Origin: Methanobacteriota archaeon
GTDB lineage: Archaea > Thermoplasmatota > Poseidoniia > Poseidoniales > Poseidoniaceae
DNA length: 64,000 bases
Assembly (NCBI GenBank): GCA_002718195.1
Contig: PBDU01000017.1
Coordinates: 53,818-117,817, forward strand
Direction of reading: 5' to 3'
Positions 6,416 through 63,429 of this stretch are shown piece by piece. Made by a program: the position numbers and the translations under genes. The first letter of the stretch is position 1, and every line of letters begins with the position of its first letter. The notes below the pieces were generated by a model. The model saw only the letters and a program-made list of their open reading frames with translations. It ran no database searches and was not told where the DNA came from.

Positions 6416-9400
6416 TCAATTCTCATCGCCGAGAACTGAAATCAAAGAGGATTGCTCCTCTATTCTGGATTTGACTTCAGCTCTTCTTGACTTTCCAACC
6501 ATGAACGCAACTGCGGTTAGGGCTATGGTTAGCAGAATAACCAATCCAGGCAATGCTGCTGCACCTACAACAACACTTGCTTGATCTAGAACTGGATTAT
6601 TCGATGACAAGTCTTGGTTGACAGCTATGATGTTGTCTCCTTCTCTAGTCTCAACAATTTCGTTACTTGGATCAACTATGACGAAAACACCGTGTTTACC
6701 AGCGCTTACTGGGTAGAGAAGGTATATTTCTACAACTTTCTCGTCTTCAGCATCCGTTGGCTCAAGAATTGCTCCAACGACTTGTCTCATAACAACGTCT
6801 TCTTCTGCACAACCTTCCTTCTTTAGGTCAGCTAATGTGCCAGACTTGCTGTTTCTTGCTTCACAAAGAATGACTTCGATATCTGTGGCATGTGTGTTAC
6901 CATCATTTGCAATGACTACTTGGATCGGTATAGTTTCATCAACGCTTGCAGAATTTTCAACAACTGTTGCCTCCTTAACAACCAAGTTAGGTGCTCTTAA
7001 TCTCAGCGTAACTACTAACTCGTTTGTATCCAGCAAATCTCCTTCCCAAGATGGTGAATCATCGTAATCACCATCATCTTCCATGTTACCGAACTCAGAT
7101 ACTACCTTGAGCCCGATATCTGTTGTGATAAGAGGAGTATTTGGTGCAACTGTTACGATTGCGACCATCTCAATGGTTTCATACGCATCCATTCTTGGTA
7201 GTTGGTATCTGCCATCAGGGAAGACCACGCATATATCATCTGGGAATATGGTTTCATCTGCATCGACTTCTGTACAAGGTGCTTCTTGTGTTATCTCGGT
7301 ATTTAGTGCTACCAATTGTCTCCACTCAACACTTGAGCCAGCAAGTGCTCCCATTCCTGGTGTTTCACTCATGAAGTCATCATCACCAATTTCTTGTGTA
7401 GTGTGATTATTCAATGATGGTGTGTCTGGAACGTTACCGTTGTTGGTAATGTTGACCGTGAACTTGACATTTCTTCCTGGGGAAGTGGTCTTAATCGCAT
7501 TGTCAACGTTTGAATCCATGATAATTTGCATATCATGGAATTCGTTGACTTGGACATTGAATATCATCTGATCTCTTAGTCTGGTGTCTCTTCCGGACGA
7601 ATCAGGATATGCCTCTTCAGAGAATGCTTGGAATACTACTGTGTATTCTCCCGCTTCAACTCTATCTGGTATCTGCATTTCAATATCAAACTCCTGGAAA
7701 GTATCTCTGCTCAGTTCGGTGAGAACATCTCTAGGAACGTCGATTTCCCACAAGACGTCAACTCCATCTGCGTCTGTTACTCTCGCCAATCTGAAATCGT
7801 ACCTATCAGGGCCATTTCCATCGTTGACGACGGTAATTGGTAGTATGATATCCTCTCCTGGATTCACGCTCAAGTCTGTGCCAACTTCTGGGTCAACGCC
7901 TGCATTCAGAGAATATACGTGAATTACATTCGTGGATAAAATCACAGAATCAGAAATTCTTGGATATCCCTCTAAGTTGGCTTTTAGAGTTACAGCAGGA
8001 CCTAGACCAGAACTTGCATTAGTTGGTGCACAAACCTCGACTCTTACTTCATATGCGACCATATCTGCTCCGCCTGGTAATTCCCACAATCTTGGTTCAC
8101 TCATTGGCAGGGAGTTGCCTCCAGGTGCATCTGAGAAATCAACATCGACAGTCCAGTGTTCCTGCCTCCATGTGCTCATTTCCATGCCATCGGGCTTAGC
8201 CTCTGGAGCTCCTGGAGTTGTGAATACCAAGTTTCCAGAATCAAAGTTCTTGGTGACTTCAATCGGGTAGGTTGCACACTCGCCCGGCAGGACATATTCG
8301 TTCGTGTCAAAGATTTCGAAAACAATGTTTCCAGTTGATCTAATCGATACGAATACTTGCAATTCCAAAATATCGTATGTACCTTGTTGTACAGATTTAA
8401 CCGGCTCTCCTTCAGACCATCCCTTCAGATATATTACGAATAATCCAGGGTCCTCAGTAGTTGGAACGCTTACCTCTAGATTCTTGGTAATCGACTGTCC
8501 AGGGTCAAGTGATACCGATGTAGGGAAGTTTACTTGCCAACCGAATGGAAGAACCCACTCTGTTTGTCCCTCAAGGGTATTTGGATCCCAGAATATGAAA
8601 CTATCATACACGTTACCAGTGTTGGTTATTGTGATTGAAAATATAGCGGACTGTCCTTGTTCGATATCTGCCATGCTGTGAGATGTATCAAGATTGATTC
8701 CATGGACAACATCCATCTTTGTTAGAGTGGTTAGAACAGATTGTATGGCAGGATCGCTTGTTGATTTCGCTTCGACTTCAATCTGTGCAAATTCATCTCC
8801 GTTTGCCTGATAAATCGACGGGGCTCTTACACGCATGTAGAATCTGATATCTTCTCCACCCATCAAGAAAATATCCGTGTCAGGGAAGATAGCAGTGTGG
8901 TTGCTTGCAAAGAACAGTGTCGCAGTCCAGTTTTGTGGTACACCAGATGAAATGTTGAGGTTGTAAGTGTCGGCAACAAGATCAGTTGGTCCCGGAGTTG
9001 AGTTGTTAACGGTTAAGTTGTACAAGGTCTGCTCTCCTGGCTCAATAACGTGATAGTATGTTTCTCCAGCGTCAAATTCAACGTCAACCTGCCCGGTCAA
9101 GATGTGAGAGTAACAAATTGTAAATCTGTTATTATTTGGATTCTGATCACACAGGTTGGTATCGGACCAACCTACGTGAGCACCGCTTCCCAAATCGTTA
9201 GCGAATGCAGGCGGCATACCTATGGAAGGTTGCCTTCCGTTGTCAGGCCCTAGTTTGTTTGAATTCCACGATGTGACCGTGTATGTTTCCCATGGGTCAA
9301 GTGCTGTTTCGCCAGGTCCAGTGTTGCTAGTTGAATTTAATCTGGTGTAAACAATTTCTTCACTAGCGGAAAGGTTTCCAGAGTCAACCCATGCAACGTG

Positions 9401-25470: not shown

Positions 25471-28400
25471 ATGAGCAAAGACTCGTCTGATAATTCAGAT
25501 GAGTTGATTCGAAAGAAAAATTTTGGTAGAGCAACAGGAATTGACCTATCAGCATTTAATCTAAATCAGGATGTTGTTGAGAATAAAGAACCAGAACCCA
25601 AGCAAGAAATTCAGGAGCCTGAAATGGACCAAGCGGTTGGTGAAGTATACGAATTTTTCACAGAGGGTAAACAGGTTACAGAGGATAATGTTGAACAATT
25701 CGATAGCGTGACGGATTTCGCAGTTCAAGGAGAGAGTAGAGTAAGCGGTGGCTTGCTTGTCATGATGATTCTAACATACTCCATATTCGCAACATTGATC
25801 GGAACTGTGGTTCCTCAATTTATTGCGGCACCTACATTAGTAGCTTTGATCGTTAGTGGATTATACCTTGGCGAGCGTTGGATTCCAAACCCAAACATGA
25901 GGCTACTCGGTGTTACTTGGGTTATCATTTCTATGAAAATATTCTATGGTTTAGCAATCGATGCTCATCATTGGGGTTGGTTAGATGGGTTTGGAGTGGA
26001 TGAGGATATTGTTCTTGGAATTTCATTACTAGCCATAGTTGCTGTAAATGTATTCATCGCCCAAAGGCACAATGAGGACGCAATTGCTGCTCAGGCAACG
26101 CTAGTTCTTCTTGCAGTAGGTAGTGCTGCAGGAGCGATTTATGGGGAAATGGGCGTTGCAGTTATGATTTGTCTAGGAGTGATCTTATTCCATGTGCTTG
26201 CCTTTTTGAGAAATTCAGGTAATCTTGCAAGCCTTGGCATAGCAACATCATATCTATGGGTCGGTTTACATGCAATCTCGCAAAATTGGAAAATTGCAGG
26301 CATTGATTTCGTACCGTTTGAGGATGATTTGCTATTGTTCATCTTAATGTTCTTTGTCACAGGTATAAATGCCACCGTTGCAACTAGATTTTCAAGCGAA
26401 AGAAATTGGTTCTCGGATGGCTTTGAGGCACTAGGTCTTGGTAAACCCGGTCTGTGGTCAGTTTCTGTTGGTCTGGGAATGATTGGGGCATTTTTGGCCT
26501 TAACTGCATTTAGGGACCAAACCGGTTACGCATTGGCGCAATTGAGCTTACTTGGGTCTGCGTTCAGCGCGTCTTATCTTGTTGTGAGAGGAGTTTCCTG
26601 GAATAAGGTGATTGCATTTGTAGGATATCCTGCACCGATCTTACTAGCAATTCTAATTTTGATGACAGGGAGGGATACTGAACTATTTGGAGTTCTTTCC
26701 GGTTATGATGTATATTCTGTACTAACAGTGGTTTTGACCGGCTTTATTTTACTTCAAAATCAGACCAATGTTTCTGATCAAGTCATTTGGGGAGTGGGCG
26801 TTTCAGCCGTGCTTATTTTGACGATTTTAATCCCAGCCGAGGATTATTCCGGGGCAAGAATGTTGCTATACTCCCAGGCAGTTGTTTGGATTGGCATGGG
26901 CGCGTTGGCGCTTTTGAGAAAGTCGGCTGGTATTGCTGGCTTTTCTGTATTAGGGCCTTGGATTTGGTTGCTAATGGTTGCAAGTGGAGCAGAGGATAGA
27001 ATCATCTCAGTGGAAATTCTTCCTACTAATTTCCCAGAATATGATATGACCGCTGTAATTATTCTCATGCTTGTTCAGCAATATACAGTCAACGCCAAAT
27101 TAGGATCTACTAACCTCAATTTAGCAGCCGCAGTACCGGGGTTGAGTGAATTCGGTGCAAGGCTAAGAGATTCTAACTTCATGAATCTCTGGAATATAGG
27201 ATTCATTGTAGCATTGATTTCAATAAGTGCAATAACTCAGCCAGAAAAAGTACCAGCAGTTGGATTAATTGTTGCATTGAATTTGTTAGTAGTAGCGCAT
27301 GCAGCTATGGCTTATTTCCAAATTCATAGGGGAAATCCAAGGACCTTACTGGGTATATGGGGGGCATTTACGATAGTAATTTCATGGGTTTTTGGATACT
27401 CTCCATTCTGGACTCTCGGCTTGTTTATTGCCGTTCTACTGTTACTTCTTGATTCGGATAGATTGTTGCGTACTGATATTGCAAAACTCGATTTGGAAGC
27501 AAAAGAAGCGATGCCAGCAAAATTACTTACCATGTCTATGGGTTTGGTGGCAGGATATCTAATCGTTCTAATTTTAGAGCCGCCCAAACAAATCTATCTT
27601 ACCGGATATGACCTAATTTCTGATCGCGCTCTAGAAGCACAGTATCTAGGGTTTATTTCAGTCGGAATGTTGCTTTTGTATCTCAGAAGAGCAGCGAAAT
27701 TGGAGAAATTATTACCTCCTACCATATCTGCAGTTGGAATGATAATCTGCATTGCTTTGGCTGGGGGAGTATATGATTCACAAGAACTTCAGACGCTTGC
27801 AGCGGTAGTCTTTGTCGGCTCTGGACTTTGGTTGATATCACAAGGAGAAATACGCTCTTCAATGCGGTCTTTGGCAACAATTAACGAAAGATTACAGAGG
27901 CACCAGCTAATGTCCGAAGTTAATTACATGGAGTCAACTGTTGATGTTAGGCAAGATTCAAATCAACCCCCTAAGAGTCAACCAGTTCCAGAAACAGTGT
28001 TGAATGCGTCTCAAATACAAACAGAAGAAGTATTCGCAGCACAGCCCGAGCCACCTGGCGACTTTGAAGTTAGCACACCTTCAATACAAGCATTTGATGT
28101 AAGAAGTATTGAACTACTTGAAAAGCAAAAGAAGCGCGCTAAGCGTAGGTCAGTTGAAAGTGAGTATGACCTAATAGTCGGTGACATAAGTTACAATCCG
28201 ACAATCGTTATCTTATTCTTAGCAGTGTTGCAGTTATTTGGAATACTTGTTGCTTACAGCGGAACTAGTACTACGTTTATTCCCATTCTCGTAGTAGGTA
28301 CAATATCCGTCATGCTAATATTTGTAGCAAAACAAAGGGCTAAGTCATTCAGTCTTCGTTTGCCGGATTTATTAGGTCTCGAAGCTCCAATCGCAGCCTC

Positions 28401-29385
28401 AATGATAGGGCTTTCAGTAATTCTGTTGGCTGGCAGGATTGGATTAAGCCCAGTCTATATTGACGATCAACTAGATAGTATGTTTCTATTAGTGTGTTTA
28501 TCTGGATTAGCAGCTATAAACCTGATCGGTTTTTCAGATAAGAACCTCAGGTTATTGAGCTCATTAGAAGGTGTTGTTGGCTTGTATGCATTTGTGAGAA
28601 TAATCGGTTTATTTGCAGGAGGAGAAATGCCAATTCCATTCCGCATTAATCCCTTTGAAAATCCAATTTCATGGTCTGTTCCAATGCTAACCACTGAGAT
28701 ATTTCTCATAGGTGCTGCTGTTCTGTTTTGGAGTATTGAATCAAAGCATTTTGCTGAAGGGAGAGAAGATGTTAGGGGCGCAGGCGGCAGAATTGGTTGG
28801 TTTGCTCTGATTTTCATTCTCTCTTCTGGAATTGCCTCTTTGATTGCCTTAGTTTGCGTACTGAATACAGGAATAAAATGGAAACAACCAGCAGTTGTTT
28901 TGTCCACCTTTGTTTGTGTGCCCGCTTCGGTTTCACAACTACTATTCTGGCTGGAAGAATATATCCAATTCATAGAACCACTAGATAGATGGCATGTCTC
29001 AATTGCTTTCGGAGCAATATCTATGATGTCTCTTGTATATGTTATCAAAGAAAAGCTATCATTATGGCTTTCAACTTCAATTTGGGCAACTCACCTTCTG
29101 CTTGCATTTGCATCTTTCACTGGATTTGGATACAGTGGAGTTGTGGTGGCAATGTTGGTTTTGTCAGCATGCGCTTGGATACCCGGAGTTCTTACAATGC
29201 GCCGTGGTTGGAGATTGTTTGGAATGGTGGATTTGGTAATTGCATGGACAGTTATGGCTTCCGAATTGATGAATGGAGCCAGTTCAATTCAGGCATTGGT
29301 CATGTTGACAGCGACGATAGTTCTGCTCAGTGTGATTACTTACCTGACCCAATCACGAGAACAAGATATCATGGAATCATCATGA
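25471..29385 (+). CDS. giant polytopic integral membrane protein (1304 aa, roughly 30+ predicted helices), function unknown
   Basis: Continuous ORF with periodic hydrophobic 20-aa segments throughout, acidic N-terminal cytoplasmic region and one approximately 130-aa basic/polar central loop; no catalytic motif recognised. Confidence 0.6.
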   Translation: MSKDSSDNSDELIRKKNFGRATGIDLSAFNLNQDVVENKEPEPKQEIQEPEMDQAVGEVYEFFTEGKQVTEDNVEQFDSVTDFAVQGESRVSGGLLVMMILTYSIFATLIGTVVPQFIAAPTLVALIVSGLYLGERWIPNPNMRLLGVTWVIISMKIFYGLAIDAHHWGWLDGFGVDEDIVLGISLLAIVAVNVFIAQRHNEDAIAAQATLVLLAVGSAAGAIYGEMGVAVMICLGVILFHVLAFLRNSGNLASLGIATSYLWVGLHAISQNWKIAGIDFVPFEDDLLLFILMFFVTGINATVATRFSSERNWFSDGFEALGLGKPGLWSVSVGLGMIGAFLALTAFRDQTGYALAQLSLLGSAFSASYLVVRGVSWNKVIAFVGYPAPILLAILILMTGRDTELFGVLSGYDVYSVLTVVLTGFILLQNQTNVSDQVIWGVGVSAVLILTILIPAEDYSGARMLLYSQAVVWIGMGALALLRKSAGIAGFSVLGPWIWLLMVASGAEDRIISVEILPTNFPEYDMTAVIILMLVQQYTVNAKLGSTNLNLAAAVPGLSEFGARLRDSNFMNLWNIGFIVALISISAITQPEKVPAVGLIVALNLLVVAHAAMAYFQIHRGNPRTLLGIWGAFTIVISWVFGYSPFWTLGLFIAVLLLLLDSDRLLRTDIAKLDLEAKEAMPAKLLTMSMGLVAGYLIVLILEPPKQIYLTGYDLISDRALEAQYLGFISVGMLLLYLRRAAKLEKLLPPTISAVGMIICIALAGGVYDSQELQTLAAVVFVGSGLWLISQGEIRSSMRSLATINERLQRHQLMSEVNYMESTVDVRQDSNQPPKSQPVPETVLNASQIQTEEVFAAQPEPPGDFEVSTPSIQAFDVRSIELLEKQKKRAKRRSVESEYDLIVGDISYNPTIVILFLAVLQLFGILVAYSGTSTTFIPILVVGTISVMLIFVAKQRAKSFSLRLPDLLGLEAPIAASMIGLSVILLAGRIGLSPVYIDDQLDSMFLLVCLSGLAAINLIGFSDKNLRLLSSLEGVVGLYAFVRIIGLFAGGEMPIPFRINPFENPISWSVPMLTTEIFLIGAAVLFWSIESKHFAEGREDVRGAGGRIGWFALIFILSSGIASLIALVCVLNTGIKWKQPAVVLSTFVCVPASVSQLLFWLEEYIQFIEPLDRWHVSIAFGAISMMSLVYVIKEKLSLWLSTSIWATHLLLAFASFTGFGYSGVVVAMLVLSACAWIPGVLTMRRGWRLFGMVDLVIAWTVMASELMNGASSIQALVMLTATIVLLSVITYLTQSREQDIMESS

Positions 29386-49398: not shown

Positions 49399-52062
49399 AT
49401 GCATAGAAGGCAAATCGCTATTTTGAGCGTTTCAGCCTTGTTGCTATTTTCGTTATCTAATTTGCTAGCAGTCCATCAAATTACGGACCAAGACTATCTC
49501 GATTTTCCTCAAAAAATAGTATCAAACTCCGAGACCAACGCGGAATTACTTGGCTGGGCAAATTCTGCAGCTGGTTTTGGCCAGGATAACGTATACGATG
49601 CCCACGTGGACATAGAGGGTTTCACCTACCTAGTTGGATCTTATACAGATTGGATGGGCTTCAATGAACAAGTCGATGGCATTACTTCTGAAGGTGCGCT
49701 AGGGGATGTGGACATGTTCCTTGGGAAAATTGACAAGAATGGAGTTTGGCTAAATGCCACCACTGAAGGGAGTTCATCAGGTAAAGATACTATTCAAGCA
49801 ATCGACAGCTTCGAAAATGGAGACTTATTGTTGGCTGGAACATTTTGTGAAGGAACTGCCGGAATCTCTTGTAACCTAACATTAGGGGATATGCCGTCTC
49901 TTGAAAAAATATCCAACAACGATGAAGGTAACATATTCGTTGGCAGATACACAACCACAGGGGCCTGGCAGTGGGTTCAAAATATTGGAAACCAATATCC
50001 AGTTGAGATTATCGGAGCGGCTGTGAATTCAGTCCAAAATTCCGTTATTGCATTTACTCACTCGGAAGATATACCAATTAATGAGGCAGTCATCAATGGA
50101 ACACCCAATTATTCCCTTAGCATCTTAGAACTAGATTTCGCGGGTAATTATTCACAACACAGCACATTGGATGCATCACAGGGTTTTGAATCTCAAGGGG
50201 ATCTATGTCCGGGGAACGATGGTGAAACCTTTACTTTGTTTGGTTTTTCAGGAGTCCTCACCTCTCAAGAACTTTCAATTTCTAGTAATGGATGGAGCGA
50301 TATCGGTCTTACAAAATTCAGTTCAGGCTCAATTGAATGGATAAGCACAGGTGGCAGTGAAGAATCGGATATGCCGGCTTCCTGCTCCTATTCACCACTA
50401 GGAAAAATTGCGATGAGTTCGACAATAAGCGGTGATTCATTATTTGGATCTTTGGAGATTACCAATATCTCAAGTCGAGCAATGTCTGTAGTTGTAGCCG
50501 ATATGAGTGGTGAGTGGAAAGAATCGGCTTCACTGGATTCAGTTAACTATGAATCAATATCGGATATTGAATTTGATGTTCAGGGTGGATTAACAGTCCT
50601 CGGCTCAATTTCGTCAACTCTGACCATCGGTGATGATGTTCTAGATGATTTGGATTCGAGTAATGACATATACAGTAATGACGTTTTCTTGGGCTATCTC
50701 TCGAATAGCATGGAGTGGGAATGGGCACTCAATGCTGGTGGAGAAGGAAATGATGTAGGACGCTCCTTATCCAAAGGCCCAGATGGCTCTTGGGTCATCA
50801 CCTACATCTTCACCGATGAGAATACTATGGCAGGTCATGATGTAATTCACCAAGGATCAGAAGATGTTGGAATTTGGAGGTATGATACAGACATCGATGG
50901 TGATGGAATTCTAGATGGGGCTGATGTTTGCCCCAGAATACCGAATCCAGACCAAGCCAACCTGGACATGGACGAGTATGGGGATTTATGTGACCTGGAC
51001 GATGATGGAGATAGGATTCCAGATGAATTAGACGATTGTCCACTTGGTGAAACAGGCTGGGTGAGCCTTCAAAGCACTGACCATGATTCAGATGGTTGTA
51101 GAGATGCAGGTGAAGATCTTGATGATGATGAAGACAGAATTTTTGACCATAATGATGCTTGTCCATTGGGCCCTGTTGGCTGGATATCTACTCCCGAGGT
51201 AGATAGGGAAGGAGATGGTTGTGCAGATTTTGATACCGATGAGGATGGTTTTGTAGACCAAGCAGACAATTGCCCAAACCTACCCAATCCAACACAAACA
51301 GACCTAGATAATGATGGTAAAGGAGATCCATGTGATGAAGACGCAGATGGAGACACAATCAATTTGCCCCAAGACAACTGTCCTATGGATTTTGAACCCT
51401 GGATTAGTACAGAATTAATCGACCATGACAGAGATGGCTGCAGGGATTCAACAAATGATTTGGACGATGATGGCGATAATATCCTTGATGGCTTTGATGC
51501 CTGTCCAGTTGGTCAGACAGGATGGCTCTCAAACGATTCAACCGATTTAGATTCAGATGGATGCAATAATGAAGAAGATCTAGATGATGATAATGATGGT
51601 TTCAATGATGATGTGGATAACTGTCCTTTGGGGATTACCGGGGTTGCTCCACTCGGACAAGATCGTGACAATGATGGTTGCATAGATTCTGTAGAGGATT
51701 TAGATGATGATGGGGATGGTGTAGAGAATGATGCCGATCAATGTCCAAGAACGCCACTGATAGGTTCTGAGATCACGGCATATGGGTGTGCTTGGATTCA
51801 ACTGGATGATGATGGGGATGGCGTGTCTAACCTCGATGACCTTTGCCCTTCGTCCTCACAAGGAGCCCTGGTGACTCTAAATGGCTGTGAGATAATCCAA
51901 GAAACTAATACAGAGGTCAGTCCATCTTCATCTAATTCAGCCCTATATGTTGTTATCGCACTATTGTCGGTGGTAACAGGGGCAATCATTTTGAAGATAA
52001 AATCAGACAATTCAACAGGTGTGGAAAAAACAGTTCAATCCATTCCTAAAGAAGAGGAATGA
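49399..52062 (+). CDS. secreted protein with thrombospondin type-3-like Ca-binding repeats and C-terminal TM anchor
   Basis: Signal-like MHRRQIAILSVSALLLFSLSNLLAV; over 12 D-x-D-x-D-G-x-x-D-x-x-D/C units (DTDIDGDGILDGADVCP, DLDDDGDRIPDELDDCP ...); C-term LYVVIALLSVVTGAIILKIKS. Confidence 0.8.
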   Translation: MHRRQIAILSVSALLLFSLSNLLAVHQITDQDYLDFPQKIVSNSETNAELLGWANSAAGFGQDNVYDAHVDIEGFTYLVGSYTDWMGFNEQVDGITSEGALGDVDMFLGKIDKNGVWLNATTEGSSSGKDTIQAIDSFENGDLLLAGTFCEGTAGISCNLTLGDMPSLEKISNNDEGNIFVGRYTTTGAWQWVQNIGNQYPVEIIGAAVNSVQNSVIAFTHSEDIPINEAVINGTPNYSLSILELDFAGNYSQHSTLDASQGFESQGDLCPGNDGETFTLFGFSGVLTSQELSISSNGWSDIGLTKFSSGSIEWISTGGSEESDMPASCSYSPLGKIAMSSTISGDSLFGSLEITNISSRAMSVVVADMSGEWKESASLDSVNYESISDIEFDVQGGLTVLGSISSTLTIGDDVLDDLDSSNDIYSNDVFLGYLSNSMEWEWALNAGGEGNDVGRSLSKGPDGSWVITYIFTDENTMAGHDVIHQGSEDVGIWRYDTDIDGDGILDGADVCPRIPNPDQANLDMDEYGDLCDLDDDGDRIPDELDDCPLGETGWVSLQSTDHDSDGCRDAGEDLDDDEDRIFDHNDACPLGPVGWISTPEVDREGDGCADFDTDEDGFVDQADNCPNLPNPTQTDLDNDGKGDPCDEDADGDTINLPQDNCPMDFEPWISTELIDHDRDGCRDSTNDLDDDGDNILDGFDACPVGQTGWLSNDSTDLDSDGCNNEEDLDDDNDGFNDDVDNCPLGITGVAPLGQDRDNDGCIDSVEDLDDDGDGVENDADQCPRTPLIGSEITAYGCAWIQLDDDGDGVSNLDDLCPSSSQGALVTLNGCEIIQETNTEVSPSSSNSALYVVIALLSVVTGAIILKIKSDNSTGVEKTVQSIPKEEE

Positions 52063-54950: not shown

Positions 54951-57512
54951 TTAGCGACCAAATTTTTCATCGGTCTCAAGTAAGAAAATTGCTTCCCTTG
55001 TGAGTTTGTAACAGTTCTTCATCCCCATTTTCCTCCTTTCTACTAAGCCATATTTCTGAAGTGTTCTCAAATGGTGTGATATCAATTGCTGGCTTTTATC
55101 TAATCTCTTAGCCAGTGCGGCTTGGGTTGGGAATTCCCCCAATAATCCATCATCATCGAGGATTGTGAGGATTTTTCCTTGCAGAGATTTTGGATCAGGG
55201 CTAAGTGGTGGGACTGGTAACTCCTGCTCCTCAGTATAAGGATTCATGTCGCTTGTAAGAGGATAGTATCTCACCAATCTTCCATCTTTCTTTCTCCAAA
55301 TCTTATCTTCTTTTTCAAGAATTCTGATGTGATGAGTACACTGTCCATTAGACATCTGCATGGCAGCCATTAGTGCTCTAAAGTGACACCCAGGGTTTGC
55401 TGTGAGATAACCCATAATCCTTCCACGCTGGTATTTTCCATCCGTGGTTTCACTGGTTTTTCCAACTAAGCCAACTAACCAGAGTCCCATTGCAGTACTT
55501 GGAATTCTCAAGCTCTCATTGCTTATTATCGCAGTGACGAGTAAGGATAGCAAAGTAGTGCTTGCAATTACAGAAATTACTGGAATTACATTGTTAGCGG
55601 GGACTATTTGTTCTTGAATTTCTACTGTTTGTTCAACGGTTTCTTCTTCAATTAGTTGGATTTCTTCTACGTCGTCATAGATATAGACAATCTCTGTAAC
55701 ATCAAAATTTTGTATTTGGTAGTTCGAACAAGCAAGGGATGTATCAGAAGTCAATGAGCCTGTGAAAATACCAGATTGACCTTGTTGCGGAGCCCAATCG
55801 GTAATTCCCAATGCGCTATTCAAACCAAACTGAGTTTCGTCTTCTTGAGTTAATACCCAGCAAGTACCTTGCTCAGTCAAAAATCCAGTCCAAGTACCTA
55901 TTAGTTCAATCTCATTGATTATCGATTGTTCAGGAGCATCAGCCTCTTCTTCTGTTTGATCCTCAAGTGGCCAATTAAATTCAATAACGTGCTCGTTTAT
56001 TGAACGGGTTGCGAGTTTAATCTCGATTATGTATGTTCCATCCTCTAGGGAGCCACCTTCCGAGTTTAACATGATTATTTCATCTGTTTTGAGTATAAAT
56101 TCTGCTCCATCTGAAAGAGAGAAAGATCTACCATCGTATGTATCACAAACTGTCTGTCTAATCTGTAACCTTTGATTTTCGAGATTCTTCAGGGTAAGTT
56201 CAATCGCACAAGGTCCTTGCCAAGTCAAGTATGAGTTGCTTTGACTACTAAGTATAATGTCCATGTTAAAGCCATTTTCTGTTTCAGATAAATCAGCCTC
56301 GAGAGATAGTAAACTTTCTTCTCCGCATGGTTCTGCAAAGTTACGCTCAAACTCGAATGTTTGAGATTTGGATATTCCCAACTCTGGAATGCTCGCAACT
56401 ATGATGTATTCGCCAGTGCCTACAGAGCATCCATTTACATCAGTGAAGAACCAATTTGGCATCTGGAGATTTAGTACGCCCTGTGTAGGCACAACCCTTT
56501 CTTGTAACATTTCATTGCAGCCGCTTAATTGCTGGCTATCAAAAACAAGATTCCCTATTGCATCATAAATCCAGTAAACTGCACGACAGGAATTAGTAAA
56601 TTCCAGTTCAATATCACTGTCAAGAATATTTTCTAAGAGAATACTTGGTGCAAATGTAGAGTCTGAAGTAAGGATCTGTCCCGATGTTATACCATTTAGG
56701 TTAGAGGTCATTCCGTCAATCACCGGTTTAGGTAATAATGAAAATGTTTCACTCCATTCACCATTTGGTGTGGAGATTATCATCTCGGATCTTGTCTCGA
56801 TGTCGAAACTTAAGTCGATAACGTGATGCAATCTAGTCTCCCATCCCTCTAGTCCAATTTCATCAAAACAACTTGGACCAATTCTTTCCTCTCCGCTAAC
56901 TGAAATTATCAATTTGCAGAATTGGTCATCTGGCATAGATACGGAATTTTCATCGTAATTCGTCCACGTAAGTCTAGCAATTTCAGCATTATGTTCTGAA
57001 AAACCAGCAGAGGAGGACACTACCTCAACCTCCAAATTCAGGCTTTCAGGCCATTCCATTGGAGCAAAGAACTGAACATCAAATGACTTTGACAAATCAG
57101 TTCCGGTGTGTAACGATTCTATTGTGTATATTCCGCTTTCAACCAGTTGTTCGTTGATTTCAAAGTTCCAAAATGTCGAGTATGATTCACTGGTTTCGCC
57201 AGAATCAAGTGTTTGTCCACGAATTTGACCTCTGCAATTTTCTTCACCATTTTGAATGAGATTGCTTTCAGAGTCGTAAATGTTGACCACTATTCCACAT
57301 GTGGGGTCGTCATCAAAGGAAATAGAGTCTCCTGAATTCATCAGCCAAGAATTGAAGTTGATGCTGTCTCCTGAGACATACCACTCTTCAGCCTCGAAAT
57401 CAGTCTCAATTGACAGATTTACTTCCTGTTGAGCAGATATCCCCATCGGATATATTGCAAGAAGTAAAACCACGCACAAAGAGAGAATTTGCATGGTTCT
57501 CACTCTGCCCAT
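54951..57512 (-). CDS. membrane-anchored protein: signal peptide, large extracellular Cys-paired repeat domains, TM helix, two cytoplasmic winged-helix domains
   Basis: MGRVRTMQILSLCVVLLLAIYPMGISA; repeated C-x-[IV]-x-x-IYD-x-x-x-NL-x(6-8)-C units; TM VIPVISVIASTTLLSLLVTAIIS; wHTH-like PGCHFRALMAAMQMSNGQCTHHIRILEKE and QAALAKRLDKSQQLISHHLRTLQKYGLVERRK. Confidence 0.65.
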   Translation of the reverse strand: MGRVRTMQILSLCVVLLLAIYPMGISAQQEVNLSIETDFEAEEWYVSGDSINFNSWLMNSGDSISFDDDPTCGIVVNIYDSESNLIQNGEENCRGQIRGQTLDSGETSESYSTFWNFEINEQLVESGIYTIESLHTGTDLSKSFDVQFFAPMEWPESLNLEVEVVSSSAGFSEHNAEIARLTWTNYDENSVSMPDDQFCKLIISVSGEERIGPSCFDEIGLEGWETRLHHVIDLSFDIETRSEMIISTPNGEWSETFSLLPKPVIDGMTSNLNGITSGQILTSDSTFAPSILLENILDSDIELEFTNSCRAVYWIYDAIGNLVFDSQQLSGCNEMLQERVVPTQGVLNLQMPNWFFTDVNGCSVGTGEYIIVASIPELGISKSQTFEFERNFAEPCGEESLLSLEADLSETENGFNMDIILSSQSNSYLTWQGPCAIELTLKNLENQRLQIRQTVCDTYDGRSFSLSDGAEFILKTDEIIMLNSEGGSLEDGTYIIEIKLATRSINEHVIEFNWPLEDQTEEEADAPEQSIINEIELIGTWTGFLTEQGTCWVLTQEDETQFGLNSALGITDWAPQQGQSGIFTGSLTSDTSLACSNYQIQNFDVTEIVYIYDDVEEIQLIEEETVEQTVEIQEQIVPANNVIPVISVIASTTLLSLLVTAIISNESLRIPSTAMGLWLVGLVGKTSETTDGKYQRGRIMGYLTANPGCHFRALMAAMQMSNGQCTHHIRILEKEDKIWRKKDGRLVRYYPLTSDMNPYTEEQELPVPPLSPDPKSLQGKILTILDDDGLLGEFPTQAALAKRLDKSQQLISHHLRTLQKYGLVERRKMGMKNCYKLTREAIFLLETDEKFGR

Positions 57513-57566
57513 GTGTTAACGCAGGTAACTCATCCCTTGAAAGGGAATTGGTGCATACAGTGTGTA

Positions 57567-58334
57567 ATGGCGAGTACATCACCAGTGGTTTCTGAGTTGA
57601 TTTCAAATGATGAAATCGTAGTGCTGCAAGCCCAGTTAGGAGAGTGGGATAACCTAAATCACCTCTTGGTTTGCGCGAAGAGTAAAAGCGCTGTAATAAT
57701 CGACCCATTTGACGCTAAATTTTGGTTTGATATTTGTCTGGAGAATGGTTGGGAATTAGAACAAGCATGGCTCACACACAGCCATTGGGATCATTCCAAA
57801 GGCATTGAGGAATGTTTGGAATTAGGTGGTCCAAATTTCCAAGTAATATTACACGAAAAAGAGCTTGAGAGGGGCTGGAATGGGCCTCATACTCATTTAT
57901 TGACAAACTCAGAACTTTCAAGTCACCCTCTTGGAATAGGGAAACTGACATTCCAGGCTCATTGCACTCCTGGGCACACTCCTGGGCATCTTACCTTCAC
58001 AGGAAATGGAGTAGTCATCTCTGGTGACTGTTTGTTCTTAGGGCGCTGTGGAAGGGCTGACCTCTATGGTGGAGATGAAAGCAAACTCAGACTAAGTCTT
58101 CGGTATTTGAGGGATGAAATCTCCCATATTCAAGACTGGATGGTTCTTCCTGGGCATCAGTATAAGCTCGAAGACGGCTCAAATCCCACCTCACTAACAG
58201 TCGCTGAATTGTTGATTAACAATCTTGCAATCAAAGCAGTTGATAATGATGAAGATTGGAATAGTCTTGATTTCCTCTCATTTGAGGATTCCTTGGCAGA
58301 AAAGGCAAGAAGACAGCGTGCAATGCAATCCTAA
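57567..58334 (+). CDS. MBL-fold metallo-hydrolase (glyoxalase II-like)
   Basis: THSHWDHSKG (HxHxDH), downstream His/Asp ligands HTPGH, D in SGDCLF; ORF-track start 57489 overlaps upstream gene, MASTSPVV Met chosen. Confidence 0.8.
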   Translation: MASTSPVVSELISNDEIVVLQAQLGEWDNLNHLLVCAKSKSAVIIDPFDAKFWFDICLENGWELEQAWLTHSHWDHSKGIEECLELGGPNFQVILHEKELERGWNGPHTHLLTNSELSSHPLGIGKLTFQAHCTPGHTPGHLTFTGNGVVISGDCLFLGRCGRADLYGGDESKLRLSLRYLRDEISHIQDWMVLPGHQYKLEDGSNPTSLTVAELLINNLAIKAVDNDEDWNSLDFLSFEDSLAEKARRQRAMQS

Positions 58335-61300
58335 TCATAGATTATCTAAGTCTATCATACCAGGCATGGACGCTCTTTCTTCCTCGACTCTCTGCTGTTC
58401 ATATTGTTGCCAAACCGGAACTTGTTCAGGTCCAGTCCAGCCCAATTCTCTAGCTTTTTCCAGGTCTCCCTGACCGACGTAATAGTCAATCCATTCCTGT
58501 CTTCGCAACTCTTCATCTTCCATGGCCATATTGACCATTCTTTCCTCTGCTCTTCTTTTAGCACTCTTTCTGCCGGCAATTTGTTTTGAAATCATAGCCA
58601 CGAATATGAGGGTAAGCATCAGTGCAGCAACTCCACCAAGAACTAACATTCCAGTATCGCTCCCGCCTGAGGTAGAATCTACTTCTCCATCTCCTGTATT
58701 CTGATTCAGAGTCGGGTCTTCAGTGATCAAGCAGGTTACTTGACCTCTGATTCCCGCACTAATTGAGGGGTCCCATTGGCAAGGGTCATTGATATTGGAA
58801 ACACCATCTCCATCATCATCTCTGCAACCGTACCTATCAATAGTTGAGTTGCCCCACTCATTCCTACAATCATCGTTCTGGTATCCAGTGAAGTTATCTC
58901 CGAAACCATCTCCATCCGCGTCTCTGCTTTGAGATGTCCTCAACGGGAAAGCGTCAGGAATTGCACCTTCGGGATTATCTCCAACTCCGTCTCCATCCAT
59001 GTCGGACCATTGCGATACGGTATCGGGGAATGCGTCTCCGTTTTGCTCTCTGATTGTAATTAGATTACCAGGATTTTCTTCATCCTCAATGGTTTTGTTA
59101 ACCCAAGTATAATTGTCACCATATCCATCGCCATCAGAATCTTCCCACTGTGTTCCATCGTTAGGGAATGTATCATCATCATCGGCATAACCGTCTCCAT
59201 CTGCATCTGGACAGCCTTGATAGTTATTCATGGTAGCTTCTCCGTATACGTCTGGACAATCATCACCACCAGGAATGTTTTCATCACCATATCCATCTCC
59301 GTCAGAATCAGCCCACTGGAACGGGTCGTTGGGGAATGCATCTAGCGGATCAGTGACTCCATCAGCATCTGTATCAGGGCAACCTCTTGTTAGAGGATTG
59401 TTGGATGTTCCATAGGATTCAGGGCAAACATCCGGCTCATTTCCGTCCTGATTGTCTCCATATCCGTCACCGTCCGTGTCATCCCACTGAGTAGGGTCTG
59501 CAGGGAATCTGTCTCCATTATTTCCACCAGGGTTGTCACCTCTGCCATCACCATCAGAGTCTTCCCATTGACTTGCATCATCAGGGAACTGATCAGGATT
59601 GTTTCCATCTGGGTTGTCCCCTCTGTTGTCTCCATCTCTATCTTCCCACTGGGTTGAGTCATCAGGGAAAGGGTCTCCAGCATTTGAGTAGCCGTCACCG
59701 TCTCTGTCAGGGCATCCTAATCTATCTTCAGTTGATGTTCCTGAATCACCAGGGCAATCGTCAGCATTATTTCCGGATTGATTGCTTCCAAAACCATCTC
59801 CGTCATCATCGCACCACTGTGTTGGGTCATTAGGGAATGCGTCTGCTCCGTCATTACAAGGGCTGAGAGTAGGCCAACCAGGGGTTGGGTCTGACCAGCC
59901 ATCGCCGTCAGAATCAGGGCAACCAAGTCTATCAAATTGTGAATCTCCCCATGCATTTGGACAACCATCGGGTCTGCTACTGGCTTGCTCATCACCAACC
60001 CAATCTCCGTCAGAATCAGCCCACTGGGTTCTGTCTAGAGGGAATACGTCAACATTAGTTGCGCCAGTAACTAATTCTCCTGGCCACTCCATTGGTCTAA
60101 TGTTAAGCCAAGAGTTGTTAGCAAAGTTGTCTCCATAGCCGTCTCCATCAGTATCGTTCCATTGAGTTGGGTCATTAGGGAATGCATCTCCTCTCTGATT
60201 TATGTGATATTGCTGATTATCCACGTCATACAGATAGTTGTCTCCATAGCCGTCCATGTCCATATCTGCCCATTGTTCGGGGTCAGATGGCCAAAGGTCC
60301 CCCTCGTCTGACCACCCGTCTCCATCTGCATCAGGGCAGCCGAACCTGTCTTCAGTTGAATTACCCCAAGTTAGGATGCAAGCATCTGGTTGGAAAGCGG
60401 GCTCAGGATTGTCACCAAAACCATCGTTATCAGTGTCATTCCACTGGGTTGGCTCATCAGGGAATTGATCTACCTTGCCATCTCCTTGGTCTGTAGTATT
60501 CCAACCATCTTGGTCCGGGTCAATGTTAGCAAACCAAATGTAGAAACCTTCATCATTTCTTCCAAAGGCTTGTGCGATATTCATTCCAGTTGGGGACCAT
60601 GAAACACCATTGTTTTGTCCGCAGTTGTTACCATTACCAGTGCTCGTGCAACCTCCCGGTCTTGGTTGGCTGAAAGAGTCGATAGATTGCCCGGACGCAA
60701 CATCAAAAATCAAAGCCGTTGCGCCATCGCTGTTATACCATCCCATACCGAATATTACTTGAGTGCTGTCTGGGGAAAAATCGGTTCCGTAGCAAGATGT
60801 AGATCCAATCTTAGTCCACGAATTTGTCCAAGTCGAAGTTTCATACATTCTTAGTTTGGAATTTCCAGAATTCTGGTCATATCCCTCACACACAGAAATG
60901 TATTCACCATCATGCGACCATGCTATAGAATTGACAGTACCAGTAGGAGATGATATTGATTGAATTGTTGACCAATCTGTTGTATCAACAACGTAAGCGT
61001 CACCAACTGTACCAATTGCTAGCTCTCCATTTGGTCCGAAGTCAACAGAATGGAATCTGTCTTCGCTTCCTGGATTTAGATTTTGCAATACATTAGCGTT
61101 TGAAGTATCAATTACTCTAACTACTCCGTTAGTACCGCCCCAACCGCTTCTGCCAATTGCAATTGCAGCCATGCTTCCGTCTTCTGATAGGTCGATGTCA
61201 TAAGTGAAATCACCTCCGCCGACATCTGCTGAAATTGACCCATGGATATCGGTTAGGTTGCTTGCATGGTATAATTTTACGGTGTCATCATCGCCAGTCA

Positions 61301-61775
61301 CTCCGATGTATCTTCCATCACCTGACCAAGAAACAGACCCAACATCCCCTCCACTGTAAGCAACAACAGACCTGTCATTTACTCCAGTGCTTGCATTCCA
61401 GACTCTTAGATATCCATTTTCATCTGCAGTCGCAACCCATTCGCCATCTGGCGAATAATCTGCATCATTGAAATCATAATTTTGCGGTATCGAAAATTCC
61501 TTTTGGAAATTTGGATTTGTGCTTGTCCATGAATCAGCCCAGTCGCTAGTCCCATCCCCGTCTCTGTCTGGACAACCTACTTTGTCTATGGTCGAAGTCC
61601 CAGCAGCATAAGGGCAATCATCACTTGCATCATCAGTTCCATCCCCATCAGTGTCAACAGCAGAAACAGTTGGAAGGATAACAGAAGCAACAAGGATTGC
61701 AACTAAAAAAGCAGGCAAAAAATGACCTTTTCTGTCTTCATGCGAAATAGCCATAAAACTCCGAGCATGCATCAT
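58335..61775 (-). CDS. giant surface protein: N-terminal signal/anchor, WD40-like beta-propeller region, long array of thrombospondin type-3-like Ca-binding repeats, C-terminal TM helix plus approximately 80-aa cytoplasmic tail
   Basis: AFLVAILVASVILPTVSAV; propeller-like repeats (SPDGEWVATADENGYLRVW, SWSGDGRYIGVTGDDDTVKLY, AWSHDGEYISVCEG); over 20 D-x-D-G-D-G units; C-term GMLVLGGVAALMLTLIFVAMISKQIAGRKSAKRR. Confidence 0.8.
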   Translation of the reverse strand: MMHARSFMAISHEDRKGHFLPAFLVAILVASVILPTVSAVDTDGDGTDDASDDCPYAAGTSTIDKVGCPDRDGDGTSDWADSWTSTNPNFQKEFSIPQNYDFNDADYSPDGEWVATADENGYLRVWNASTGVNDRSVVAYSGGDVGSVSWSGDGRYIGVTGDDDTVKLYHASNLTDIHGSISADVGGGDFTYDIDLSEDGSMAAIAIGRSGWGGTNGVVRVIDTSNANVLQNLNPGSEDRFHSVDFGPNGELAIGTVGDAYVVDTTDWSTIQSISSPTGTVNSIAWSHDGEYISVCEGYDQNSGNSKLRMYETSTWTNSWTKIGSTSCYGTDFSPDSTQVIFGMGWYNSDGATALIFDVASGQSIDSFSQPRPGGCTSTGNGNNCGQNNGVSWSPTGMNIAQAFGRNDEGFYIWFANIDPDQDGWNTTDQGDGKVDQFPDEPTQWNDTDNDGFGDNPEPAFQPDACILTWGNSTEDRFGCPDADGDGWSDEGDLWPSDPEQWADMDMDGYGDNYLYDVDNQQYHINQRGDAFPNDPTQWNDTDGDGYGDNFANNSWLNIRPMEWPGELVTGATNVDVFPLDRTQWADSDGDWVGDEQASSRPDGCPNAWGDSQFDRLGCPDSDGDGWSDPTPGWPTLSPCNDGADAFPNDPTQWCDDDGDGFGSNQSGNNADDCPGDSGTSTEDRLGCPDRDGDGYSNAGDPFPDDSTQWEDRDGDNRGDNPDGNNPDQFPDDASQWEDSDGDGRGDNPGGNNGDRFPADPTQWDDTDGDGYGDNQDGNEPDVCPESYGTSNNPLTRGCPDTDADGVTDPLDAFPNDPFQWADSDGDGYGDENIPGGDDCPDVYGEATMNNYQGCPDADGDGYADDDDTFPNDGTQWEDSDGDGYGDNYTWVNKTIEDEENPGNLITIREQNGDAFPDTVSQWSDMDGDGVGDNPEGAIPDAFPLRTSQSRDADGDGFGDNFTGYQNDDCRNEWGNSTIDRYGCRDDDGDGVSNINDPCQWDPSISAGIRGQVTCLITEDPTLNQNTGDGEVDSTSGGSDTGMLVLGGVAALMLTLIFVAMISKQIAGRKSAKRRAEERMVNMAMEDEELRRQEWIDYYVGQGDLEKARELGWTGPEQVPVWQQYEQQRVEEERASMPGMIDLDNL

Positions 61776-61878: not shown

Positions 61879-63429
61879 GTGTCTGAGGGCAGTAAGGTCA
61901 ACATCGCGGTCGCAGACCGCGTTTTGCTTCACCTATTTGCTCACTATGAACAACTCGATCAATACATGGTCACATCCGATCTAACCAGGAACGGAATCGC
62001 TCAGGCATGTGCACAGCACCCTCCAAATGTTAGTCGAGCAATGAAAGATCTTCTTCTTGATGGCTTGGTCGAAGAGCATTCGAGAAGCATAATCAACGAG
62101 GATAGGAGGAAAAAAGCCTGGCAACTAACTCCAGCAGGGCATTCCACTGCAAAAAGACGCTACAATGACCTTGCAAAAGTGAAGGTCCTCCTTAGAGGTA
62201 AAGATGGTAAATTACTGGAAATAGAAGCGGGCGAAGCTGCTGACCGTTTATCTACTGATATCGGCTTACTTCAGATTCTACTTCATTCGCAGTATGAGGG
62301 TGCACTTACCTATGGCGACATCAGATTTGGATTAATTAAGAAAAAGAATGAGGGTAAAGATACGCCACAGCCAGGAAGATTGGTACCTTTCCTCGGAGCT
62401 CATGCTACCTACCACACAGAGGCTCCTCAGACGAGAGAAGTTCATGGCAGAGAATCTGAAAGGGAACTAATAGACTCTTGGATGGAGGAAAAAAGTCCTT
62501 GTCTGGTGGTTCATGGAATCGCAGGAATTGGAAAATCAACACTCGTTTCCCACTGGCTTTCAAAACATAAAATGGAGAATAAAAATCTCTCTGTGTGTTG
62601 GTATCCATGCCATCCATGGGACAAGGAATTGGGGCTTGCAACAAGCCTTCTTCACAGATTTGGCGTGGATGAAAACCATGATCCATACAATTTAATCGAG
62701 ACTTTACCCCTCAAACCCGGAGCAAAGATGGATGTTGAATTATGGTATAGGCGCTTGCTTGCATATCTAACCGATGCTAACGCAATCAGGGAGCGTTTCA
62801 GTCGACGAAAAGGCGGGCCTCCACCATATTGGCTGATTATTTTAGACGACGTACATCTGATCGAGAATGAGTGTAAAGAGTTGTTAACTGCTCTTTTGAC
62901 TTTGAGCACAAAAACCCCGCTAAGGCTTGTAATGATCTCCAGAGCAACTCTTTCCTTCTATGATAGGCGTGACGTTTTTACAAGAAAAATCGTGCAAGAA
63001 ATGCCTCTAAAAGGCCTGACATTGGATGAAGTCAAAATTTGGATTGAAGACTTTGATCCGGAATCAAACCTTGACATCGATGAATTATTTGCACAAATTG
63101 GAGGTCATCCATTGGCACTTGAGTTTTTGGAACTATACGGTACAAAAATTCACGGGGATTGGTTGAAGTTCTTAGATCAAGAGATTCTAGAAAGGCTACC
63201 GGAAATGGAGAGGAACTTACTCTCTACGCTTGCTGTTAGCGAGAAACCTGTGGTTTGGGAGAAACTTGCAAAAGCGGTTGGCTGGAATGGAAACCCCCCT
63301 GAAAATCTTCTATCTCATGGGCTGATTATAGAGCTAGAAGATGGCATGTGGTTGCATGAGGCACTCAGAGAACGCCTCCTACGGGAAGTCGGAGCAAAGA
63401 AGGAAGAAAGACGAGAATCTCTGATTTAA
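61879..63429 (+). CDS. winged-HTH plus P-loop NTPase (AAA/STAND-like) putative regulator
   Basis: N-terminal MarR-like wHTH (TRNGIAQACAQHPPNVSRAMKDLLLDGLVEE), Walker A CLVVHGIAGIGKSTLVSHWL, Walker B-like WLIILDDVHLIE; GTG start. Confidence 0.6.
   Translation: MSEGSKVNIAVADRVLLHLFAHYEQLDQYMVTSDLTRNGIAQACAQHPPNVSRAMKDLLLDGLVEEHSRSIINEDRRKKAWQLTPAGHSTAKRRYNDLAKVKVLLRGKDGKLLEIEAGEAADRLSTDIGLLQILLHSQYEGALTYGDIRFGLIKKKNEGKDTPQPGRLVPFLGAHATYHTEAPQTREVHGRESERELIDSWMEEKSPCLVVHGIAGIGKSTLVSHWLSKHKMENKNLSVCWYPCHPWDKELGLATSLLHRFGVDENHDPYNLIETLPLKPGAKMDVELWYRRLLAYLTDANAIRERFSRRKGGPPPYWLIILDDVHLIENECKELLTALLTLSTKTPLRLVMISRATLSFYDRRDVFTRKIVQEMPLKGLTLDEVKIWIEDFDPESNLDIDELFAQIGGHPLALEFLELYGTKIHGDWLKFLDQEILERLPEMERNLLSTLAVSEKPVVWEKLAKAVGWNGNPPENLLSHGLIIELEDGMWLHEALRERLLREVGAKKEERRESLI

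Follow-up and report, generated by a model that had tools for sequence, protein, structure and literature searches.

A probable type I transmembrane transcription regulator encoded by a core syntenic gene of Poseidoniales

Transmembrane transcription regulators (TTRs), the class defined by Demey et al. in 2023 with ToxR, TcpP, and CadC as prototypes, combine one or more transmembrane (TM) regions with a DNA-binding domain, both predicted, in a single polypeptide, and a survey of 404 archaeal species recovered 1,384 such proteins, or ∼4 per genome (PMC10269533). Single-pass proteins are the commonest type (56%), 57% lack any recognizable domain other than the DNA-binding one, some are accompanied by an adjacent membrane co-component, and ArnR of Sulfolobus is the only archaeal member listed as characterized (PMC10269533). 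Here we describe a gene (positions 54951 to 57512) in a 64-kb window, by which we mean the whole stretch of DNA analyzed, from contig PBDU01000017.1 of a Poseidoniaceae assembly (GCA_002718195.1). Judging from its sequence, the 853-aa product is probably a type I single-pass (N-out/C-in) TTR encoded by a core syntenic gene of the order Poseidoniales. The TTR class is already described, and the family of the window protein is conserved but uncharacterized; its distinctive features are a signal-peptide-dependent type I order, a tandem ArsR-type output, a four-fold BsuPI-like rod, syntenic core status, and a gene-specific promoter element.

Like ToxR, TcpP, and CadC, the window protein joins, on one polypeptide, a domain outside the cytoplasm to a winged helix inside it by way of a single TM helix. 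ToxR and CadC, however, are type II proteins without a signal peptide, in which an N-terminal OmpR-type winged helix-turn-helix (wHTH) lies inside and the C terminus outside, whereas the window protein has the reversed order (signal peptide, ectodomain, TM helix, C-terminal tail), a DNA-binding part made of two ArsR-type units in tandem, and a five-domain rod of 613 aa as its ectodomain. Trans_reg_C, the OmpR/PhoB-type wHTH of ToxR and CadC, has no Pfam match in the window protein. ArnR and ArnR1 of Sulfolobus acidocaldarius are likewise archaeal, membrane-bound, helix-turn-helix (HTH)-containing regulators of surface structures, but ArnR has an N-terminal HTH and the opposite domain order, comes from a different phylum, and shows no sequence relationship to the window protein. 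Its membrane spans are C-terminal, and it is not known to have a large ectodomain. Given the opposite domain order and the different type of wHTH, we do not consider the window protein a relative of ToxR/CadC or ArnR. Notch and other type I receptors provide an analogy only, in that disulfide-rich repeats on the outside are linked by one TM helix to an internal domain that controls transcription; they have no homology to the window protein, which comes from a prokaryote without a nuclear barrier. We found nothing specific in the literature on HVO_0163, COG3398, or MGII (Marine Group II) surface regulators. The initial annotation, made from the sequence without database searches, had offered two readings. 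A one-component transmembrane transcription factor is still the best reading given the topology and the two ArsR-like winged helices, but an anti-sigma-like tether is not supported, since no anti-sigma Pfam family matched at E ≤ 0.1 and archaea, to our knowledge, have no sigma factors. The accompanying remark that no described archaeal family fits finds no support: TTRs have been surveyed in archaea (PMC10269533), Pfam has a curated family that includes the first wHTH unit, and relatives are already annotated in public records as "ArsR family transcriptional regulator."

The gene is real, with ∼28 full-length ortholog clusters (830 to 920 aa, 29 to 47% identity) among the 1384 clusters returned by an exhaustive HMMER search at E ≤ 1e-3, and 280 loci in a reference-genome scan with two tail peptides. 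The best 80 of these 280 loci, which we examined, all lie in Poseidoniales/MGII metagenome-assembled genomes (MAGs), including the original MG-II assembly CM001443.1, and close homologs carry the label Candidatus Poseidoniaceae. The open reading frame (ORF) had been reported at the correct position and length but without its strand; ORF listing and translation place its ATG and 853 codons on the minus strand, and the plus-strand frame over the same interval has many stops. The N terminus, MGRVRTMQILSLCVVLLLAIYPMGISA followed by QQ, has the basic n-region, hydrophobic core, and I-S-A motif of the cleavable-looking signal peptide first noted (Table 1). The extracellular region, put at ∼600 aa in the initial annotation, measures 613 aa (residues 28 to 640) and is very acidic, with 18% D+E versus 3% K+R, a net charge of −91, and 12 Cys. 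Besides the signal sequence, the only strong hydrophobic segment is the single TM helix already recognized at the outset (Kyte-Doolittle hydropathy up to 2.36, peak at 645 to 663), which AlphaFold2 (AF2) models at 639 to 664; its sequence, VIPVISVIASTTLLSLLVTAIIS, is rich in small and polar residues. The tail (665 to 853) has a net charge of +7.

An N-out/C-in topology, as originally proposed, is probable because the signal peptide, the charge bias around the TM helix, the restriction of Cys pairs to its N-terminal side, and the basic, Cys-poor tail homologous to soluble regulators all point the same way. In each of 22 aligned orthologs, the 20 residues before the TM helix hold 0 to 2 K/R and 2 to 8 D/E, and the invariant Cys pairs occur only outside. 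The tail would lie outside, and the winged helices would be extracellular with no DNA-binding output, if AMGLWLVGLVG (674 to 684) were a second membrane span, and this conserved hydrophobic stretch does directly follow the TM helix and is modeled by AF2 as a helix. With only 10 to 11 apolar residues, however, it is too short for the bilayer and never reaches the hydropathy threshold, and the tail carries a net positive charge, is devoid of the conserved Cys pair present in every extracellular domain, and is homologous to soluble cytoplasmic regulators, so we regard an external tail as very improbable. The conserved stretch (AGLWLLGLxG across orthologs) is modeled as a second helix and is most simply read as an interfacial one.

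Two wHTH units had been recognized by eye in a C-terminal region of ∼190 aa, with the proviso that this region might not have a winged-helix fold; Pfam, AF2, Foldseek, and a shared ArsR signature now all point to that fold. PF24266 (HTH_HVO_0163_N) matches residues 695 to 755 with 55.4 bits (cutoff, 31), HTH_5 (32.1 bits; cutoff, 22), HTH_20 (29.8 bits; cutoff, 27), and MarR_2 match at 795 to 828, and HTH_24 is likewise at or above its Pfam cutoff, giving the protein the predicted DNA-binding domain that defines a TTR alongside its TM region. The best Protein Data Bank (PDB) sequence match of wHTH1 is 5duk, a 77-residue "putative DNA binding protein," and those of wHTH2 are ArsR-family repressors. 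The AlphaFold model that the initial annotation had suggested as a check (40-sequence alignment; mean pLDDT, 79.6) contains the TM helix, a helix at 666 to 685, and two H-H-H-β-β units at 690 to 751 and 777 to 847 with a Pro-rich linker between them. In Foldseek, the single units, each with a recognition helix and β-hairpin wing as in ArsR/SmtB proteins, superpose on SmtB, CadC(pI258), CzrA, HlyU, and NolR at 2 to 3 Å and 20 to 33% identity, and matches were also obtained to the tandem winged-helix proteins RPC62, TFIIIC, ESCRT-II, ScpB, and PF0095.

The units match one another in hhalign (86%), have in common S-x-x-Q-x-x-H-H-L-R-x-L ... G-R-x-x-R-Y, the ArsR recognition-helix/wing signature, and each present 8 K/R on the recognition helix and wing. 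By sequence and model, they are predicted to be paralogous ArsR/SmtB-type winged helices in tandem, and the tandem appears to be the equivalent of a complete free-standing HVO_0163-like regulator. As in HVO_0163-like proteins, a PF24266 match above cutoff is followed by a second wHTH (777 to 847) within the tail (695 to 847), and soluble homologs of 162 to 189 aa consist of the same two units. The HVO_0163-like and ArsR/SmtB proteins are soluble, however, whereas the window tail is fused to a signal peptide, an ectodomain, and a TM helix. ArsR/SmtB proteins, which wHTH2 resembles in its HTH_5 and HTH_20 matches and in its fold, differ further in being homodimers with an inducer site, whereas the window protein has two units in one chain; by inspection of the 22-ortholog alignment, we saw neither a conserved CXC (α3) nor an α5 His/Asp/Glu metal site, and Cys709 is not invariant. 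We infer from these comparisons that the tail binds DNA.

Conservation rises from the outside of the protein to the inside. Mean pairwise identity in the 22-sequence alignment is 18 to 28% for the five ectodomain modules (D1 to D5), 14% for the stalk, and 30% for the TM helix, and 56% for the juxtamembrane segment, 76% for wHTH1, 56% for the linker, and 69% for wHTH2. Conservation of the juxtamembrane motif, NESxRIPxTxAGLWxLGLxGK/RTxETxDGR/KYQRGR, far exceeds that of the TM helix before it, and the motif may act as an interfacial helix, a site for a partner or a protease, or a phosphosite.

The TM helix and double wHTH also recur as a cassette at the C-terminal end of many metagenomic proteins of 280 to 1463 aa. 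A TM helix lies ≤80 residues upstream of the tail in 92 of 106 representatives with a complete tail, which is always C-terminal, and 72 of these 92 have an N-terminal hydrophobic signal-like segment as well. The ectodomains on the cassette include CARDB, NosD-type β-helix, TSP3 repeats, lamin-tail (LTD), and PKD domains, or nothing recognizable. The occurrence of the cassette on many unrelated ectodomains, together with complete soluble double-wHTH versions of 162 to 189 aa, suggests that the tail is an output module and the ectodomain a swappable input. Tail-only database proteins of 200 to 370 aa were considered as natural soluble or short variants; they were rejected as fragments, at least in the one case examined, where they are frameshift products. 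This case is a long-read locus (ERZ28548062 contig_12602_pilon) where frameshifts break the genes for the upstream WD40 protein, the target protein, and the leucyl-tRNA synthetase (LeuRS) into two ORFs apiece, and at least some of the tail-only proteins can be attributed to such assemblies.

Outside the membrane, AF2 (29 sequences) gives a confident all-β model (pLDDT, 83.5; pTM, 0.67) with sandwich domains at about 33 to 149, 158 to 259, 268 to 389, and 402 to 514, a small fifth β domain at 535 to 611, and disordered stretches at 518 to 531 and in the acidic stalk (615 to 640). At least three Cys-pair modules had been noticed from the sequence, and the quoted segments are present at C72/C93, C309/C332, and C435/C456; profile-profile comparison of ortholog sub-alignments raises the number to four. 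Self-BLAST detected no repeats in the ectodomain; D1 to D4 became recognizable as repeats only in the profile-profile comparison. They are mutually homologous with the Cys pair in register, with probabilities of 99.3% for D1-D3 (E = 3e-20, the best), 97.5% for D1-D2, 96.7% for D3-D4, 96% for D2-D3, 95.7% for D1-D4, and 75.5% for D2-D4, and the same comparison gave no relationship of D5 to D1 to D4. All 12 ectodomain Cys are invariant across the 22 orthologs (26 to 60% identity). The modules are predicted to have a β-sandwich fold like that of BsuPI (PF12690), against which the window protein scores 18.3 bits, below the Pfam cutoff of 22.9. BsuPI itself, the intracellular proteinase inhibitor of B. 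subtilis (PDB 3isy), is a single-domain cytoplasmic protein, whereas the window protein has four extracellular copies, each with a disulfide pair. Foldseek with the whole rod retrieved the macroglobulin/immunoglobulin (MG/Ig)-type arrays of C5, C3, alpha-2-macroglobulin, and CD109 (E ∼1e-10; TM-score, ∼0.15), a similarity of the model that we consider generic. The ectodomain resembles macromolecule-binding domain arrays more closely than a small-molecule pocket; it is probably a fast-evolving surface receptor or contact module and, by extension, a putative sensor.

The same rod could belong to a mainly structural surface or envelope component, for example an adhesin or a rod associated with the S-layer, whose winged helices would fasten it to the nucleoid or to a partner in the cytoplasm and send no signal to promoters. 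A generic β-sandwich array on a disulfide framework, comparable to MG/Ig arrays, RbmA, and the Haloferax S-layer glycoprotein, would suit such a role, as would the fast evolution typical of exposed envelope proteins, neighbors that are surface proteins of the same plan, the frequency with which tandem winged-helix domains mediate protein-protein contacts, and the lack of regulon sites within ±6 kb at 80 loci, in the 64-kb window, and among the metagenome matches listed. We nevertheless consider it quite unlikely, as both wHTH units retain the ArsR recognition-helix signature and a basic wing at 69 to 76% identity across the order, their sequence-level matches are DNA-binding repressors and not scaffolds, and the same tail is joined to many unrelated ectodomains, as expected of an output module.

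The initial annotation had recommended a search for MGII orthologs and conserved neighbors, and the loci recovered share a gene order: a divergent gene for a STAND-like wHTH+AAA_16 protein, a WD40 surface protein gene, a divergent and variable metallo-β-lactamase (MBL)-fold gene, the target gene, and LeuRS. Among the best 80 loci, WD40 lies upstream at 74, LeuRS downstream at 79, and the MBL gene is present at 23, and the order is retained at two orthologs of only 26 to 28% identity. Since LeuRS is equally syntenic, synteny with the WD40 and STAND-like genes is no proof of a functional link.

Alignment of upstream DNA across loci revealed a conserved 34-nt promoter element, TTACACACTGTATGCACCAATTCCCTTTCAAGGG, which is new here (consensus, ttACaCAt.gttTGCACCGCTgacCTTTCAAg) and follows the pattern TTACRCAY-N3-4-WTGYACCGCTG-NN-CCTTTCAA, with TTACRCAY as block A, WTGYACCGCTG as block B, and CCTTTCAA as block C. 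The TATA-like TTTCAA of block C (57537 to 57542) is fixed 24 nt before the ATG, is replaced by TTTTAT at 3 loci, and may be the TATA box of a leaderless or near-leaderless promoter. Blocks A and B lie upstream of it, with block B partly at the position expected of a transcription factor B recognition element (BRE) and not A-rich. The element is retained whether the gene lies behind WD40 (same strand, where the ∼60-nt spacer is nearly all element) or behind the divergent MBL gene. A weight matrix found it at 72 of the 80 loci, one copy per locus and always in the same place, and at a single site in the 64-kb window, which scored 38.7, with no other position reaching 8. The best ATG-anchored 30-nt window carries 0.87 bits/position for the target gene versus 0.48 for LeuRS and 0.21 for WD40. 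A metagenome scan with blocks A and B gave at least 120 matches; among the matches listed, 21 had the TATA part too and all 21 were followed by the target gene, and the other 99 had neither the TATA part nor the target gene downstream, about the number that we estimate by chance for a roughly 32-bit pattern. The gene thus appears to be under dedicated, conserved cis-control in Poseidoniaceae. The element is only partly recognizable at one divergent locus (L082).

Other explanations of the upstream sequence were set aside. An RNA motif is disfavored by the lack of any Rfam match to the element and by the fixed TATA-like spacing, which favors a promoter, and a general MGII promoter consensus or regulon motif was rejected on the single copy in the window, the one copy per locus, and the 99 noncognate matches without the TATA part. 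The palindrome CCCTTTCAAGGG upstream of the ATG was tried as an operator and rejected, its flanks not being conserved at other loci. The divergent MBL-fold gene probably starts at an ATG (57567, plus strand) that abuts the 5′ edge of the element (57537-to-57569 region), and TTTCAA, which reads TTGAAA on the plus strand, lies ∼25 nt upstream of this ATG, so the divergent genes may share one TATA box.

We hypothesize that the ectodomain would report an event at the surface, with a change of state through ligand binding, clustering, or clipping, and that the TM and juxtamembrane helices would relay this change to the tail. There, the two tethered wHTH units would form an intramolecular, DNA-binding pseudo-dimer that controls transcription from the membrane in the manner of ToxR/CadC-type regulators. 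The gene itself may be controlled through the family-specific element, which immediately precedes an atypical BRE/TATA, and the simplest hypothesis is that it is autoregulated by its own recognition helices, which are equally conserved. Action at the membrane and action after proteolytic release are two possible variants of this regulator hypothesis. Several points weigh against a regulator. The ectodomain resembles structural, adhesin, or S-layer-type β-sandwich arrays, and Pfam and Foldseek comparisons showed in it no recognizable ligand pocket and neither an enzyme nor a known sensor domain; winged helices in tandem can also act as scaffolds for protein-protein contacts, as the Foldseek matches to ESCRT-II, ScpB, and RPC62 illustrate; and the NCBIfam ArsR/SmtB model NF033788 scores 53.4, slightly under its cutoff of 55. 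The topology was judged on hydropathy and charge only, and the tail begins ∼30 residues past the membrane, which DNA would have to approach very closely. No second copy of the element was found within ±6 kb at the 80 loci, in the 64-kb window, or among the metagenome matches listed, so that no regulon is visible, and the element is absent at the locus of the most divergent ortholog (L083).

The short tether, which makes action at the membrane sterically awkward, also speaks for a Notch-like mechanism of regulated proteolysis, in which an extracellular event would license an intramembrane cut of the TM helix and release a soluble, latent double-wHTH factor to the chromosome. Type I substrates are typically those of presenilin-like or rhomboid enzymes, and from the type I topology the protease would be a presenilin homolog or a rhomboid. 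The protein is single-pass with a potentially releasable cytoplasmic effector, as intramembrane-proteolysis substrates are, and its topology is type I, its ectodomain large, its stalk disordered, and its TM helix rich in small and polar residues (Ser and Thr). The tail is a complete regulator that occurs in soluble form elsewhere, and the strongly conserved membrane-proximal segment, in which E666 and R669 are invariant, would suit a determinant of recognition or cleavage. Archaeal genomes encode S2P, SPP/presenilin-like, and rhomboid proteases, and their natural substrates are unknown (PMC9263693). We found no intramembrane protease gene within the 64-kb window or the syntenic block and no recognizable cleavage motif, however; the apparent natural short forms are frameshift artifacts in the case examined, and the TM sequence is poorly conserved (30%). 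Such release is in our view unlikely, and a full archaeal counterpart of Notch-type signaling, in which the state of the ectodomain would license presenilin or rhomboid cleavage and the released tandem-wHTH factor would return to its own element and other targets, is a rather improbable extension of it.

Table 1. Coordinates of the gene, its predicted protein regions, the promoter element, and two syntenic neighbors in the 64-kb window
Feature	Residues	Coordinates	Strand	Description	Basis
Whole ORF		54951..57512	minus	853 aa plus stop; read as probable type I transmembrane transcription regulator	ORF listing, translation, homologs
Signal peptide	1-27	57432..57512	minus	Predicted cleavage after ISA	Hydropathy and motif; plan kept in orthologs
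Module D1	28-152	57057..57431	minus	BsuPI-like β-sandwich, Cys72-Cys93	AF2 model, profile-profile comparison, Foldseek
Module D2	153-262	56727..57056	minus	Cys199-Cys215	AF2 model, profile-profile comparison
Module D3	263-392	56337..56726	minus	Cys309-Cys332 plus extra Cys362/Cys396	Weak BsuPI Pfam match 286-324, AF2, profile-profile comparison
Module D4	397-517	55962..56324	minus	Cys435-Cys456	AF2 model, profile-profile comparison
Juxtamembrane β domain D5	532-612	55677..55919	minus	Cys551-Cys595; motif GxW...GxCW...W.P..G..G.Y...C	AF2, alignment, profile-profile comparison
Stalk	613-641	55590..55676	minus	Acidic, disordered, poorly conserved	pLDDT <50; 14% mean identity
Transmembrane helix	642-664	55521..55589	minus	Single, Ser/Thr-rich	Hydropathy, AF2
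Juxtamembrane segment	665-694	55431..55520	minus	NESLRIPSTAMGLWLVGLVGKTSETTDGKY; conserved; predicted second helix 666-685	E666 and R669 invariant
wHTH1	695-751	55260..55430	minus	PF24266 HTH_HVO_0163_N; recognition helix MSNGQCTHHIRILE plus wing	Pfam, 5duk match, AF2, Foldseek
Linker	752-776	55185..55259	minus	Pro-rich, conserved, ...LPVPPLSPDPKSLQG	Alignment, AF2
wHTH2	777-847	54972..55184	minus	ArsR/SmtB-like (HTH_5, HTH_20, MarR_2); recognition helix KSQQLISHHLRTLQ plus wing	Pfam, NCBIfam, AF2, Foldseek
Conserved promoter element		57534..57567	minus	34 nt	Upstream alignment across loci; 72/80 Poseidoniaceae loci
Syntenic upstream gene		58335..61775	minus	1146-aa type I surface protein; signal peptide, WD40 propeller, Asp-rich motifs, one TM, 85-aa tail	74/80 loci
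Syntenic divergent gene		61879..63429	plus	wHTH + AAA_16 STAND-like NTPase	Pfam; synteny

The 1146-aa WD40 surface protein encoded upstream is a possible partner of the target protein. Divergent from its gene is that of the 516-aa STAND-like protein, which has an N-terminal wHTH (HTH_Crp_2, sub-threshold) ahead of AAA_16 and is syntenic with the target even at the orthologous loci of 26 to 28% identity. The WD40 protein is one of three further large type I surface proteins in the window, with those of 1680 aa (6416 to 11458, minus strand) and 887 aa (49399 to 52062, plus strand); each has a signal peptide, a Cys-rich acidic ectodomain (net charge, −151 to −177), one C-terminal TM helix, and a short tail, and besides the WD40 propeller in one, another has six TSP3 repeats. 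There is no paralog of the target gene within the window; the only other weak match to the tail there is a soluble 248-aa protein (4025 to 4771, plus strand) with an N-terminal ArsR-like HTH_20 and no TM helix. A 1304-aa ORF (25471 to 29385, plus strand) has ∼29 predicted transmembrane segments and no Pfam match at E ≤ 1e-6. Elsewhere, one locus titled "Verrucomicrobiales bacterium" (NZEQ01000060.1) carries the complete MGII block (STAND, WD40, target, LeuRS, and TSP3) and has probably been mis-binned.

Marine Group II archaea are uncultured and among the most abundant planktonic archaea, and we know of no account of how they sense particles, polymers, neighbors, or viruses. A fast-evolving surface rod joined to a highly constrained, putative DNA-binding output makes this protein a prime candidate for a surface-to-genome signaling route in MGII, and the occurrence of the TM and double-wHTH cassette on many ectodomains suggests a modular, unstudied receptor family. 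The gene-specific promoter element provides a first concrete candidate binding site, and the type I topology identifies a candidate substrate family for archaeal presenilin-like or rhomboid proteases. If the Notch-type reading were true, archaeal intramembrane proteases would gain in this family their first class of natural substrates, and its members would form a modular set of receptors with interchangeable ectodomains (BsuPI repeats, CARDB, NosD β-helix, and TSP3).

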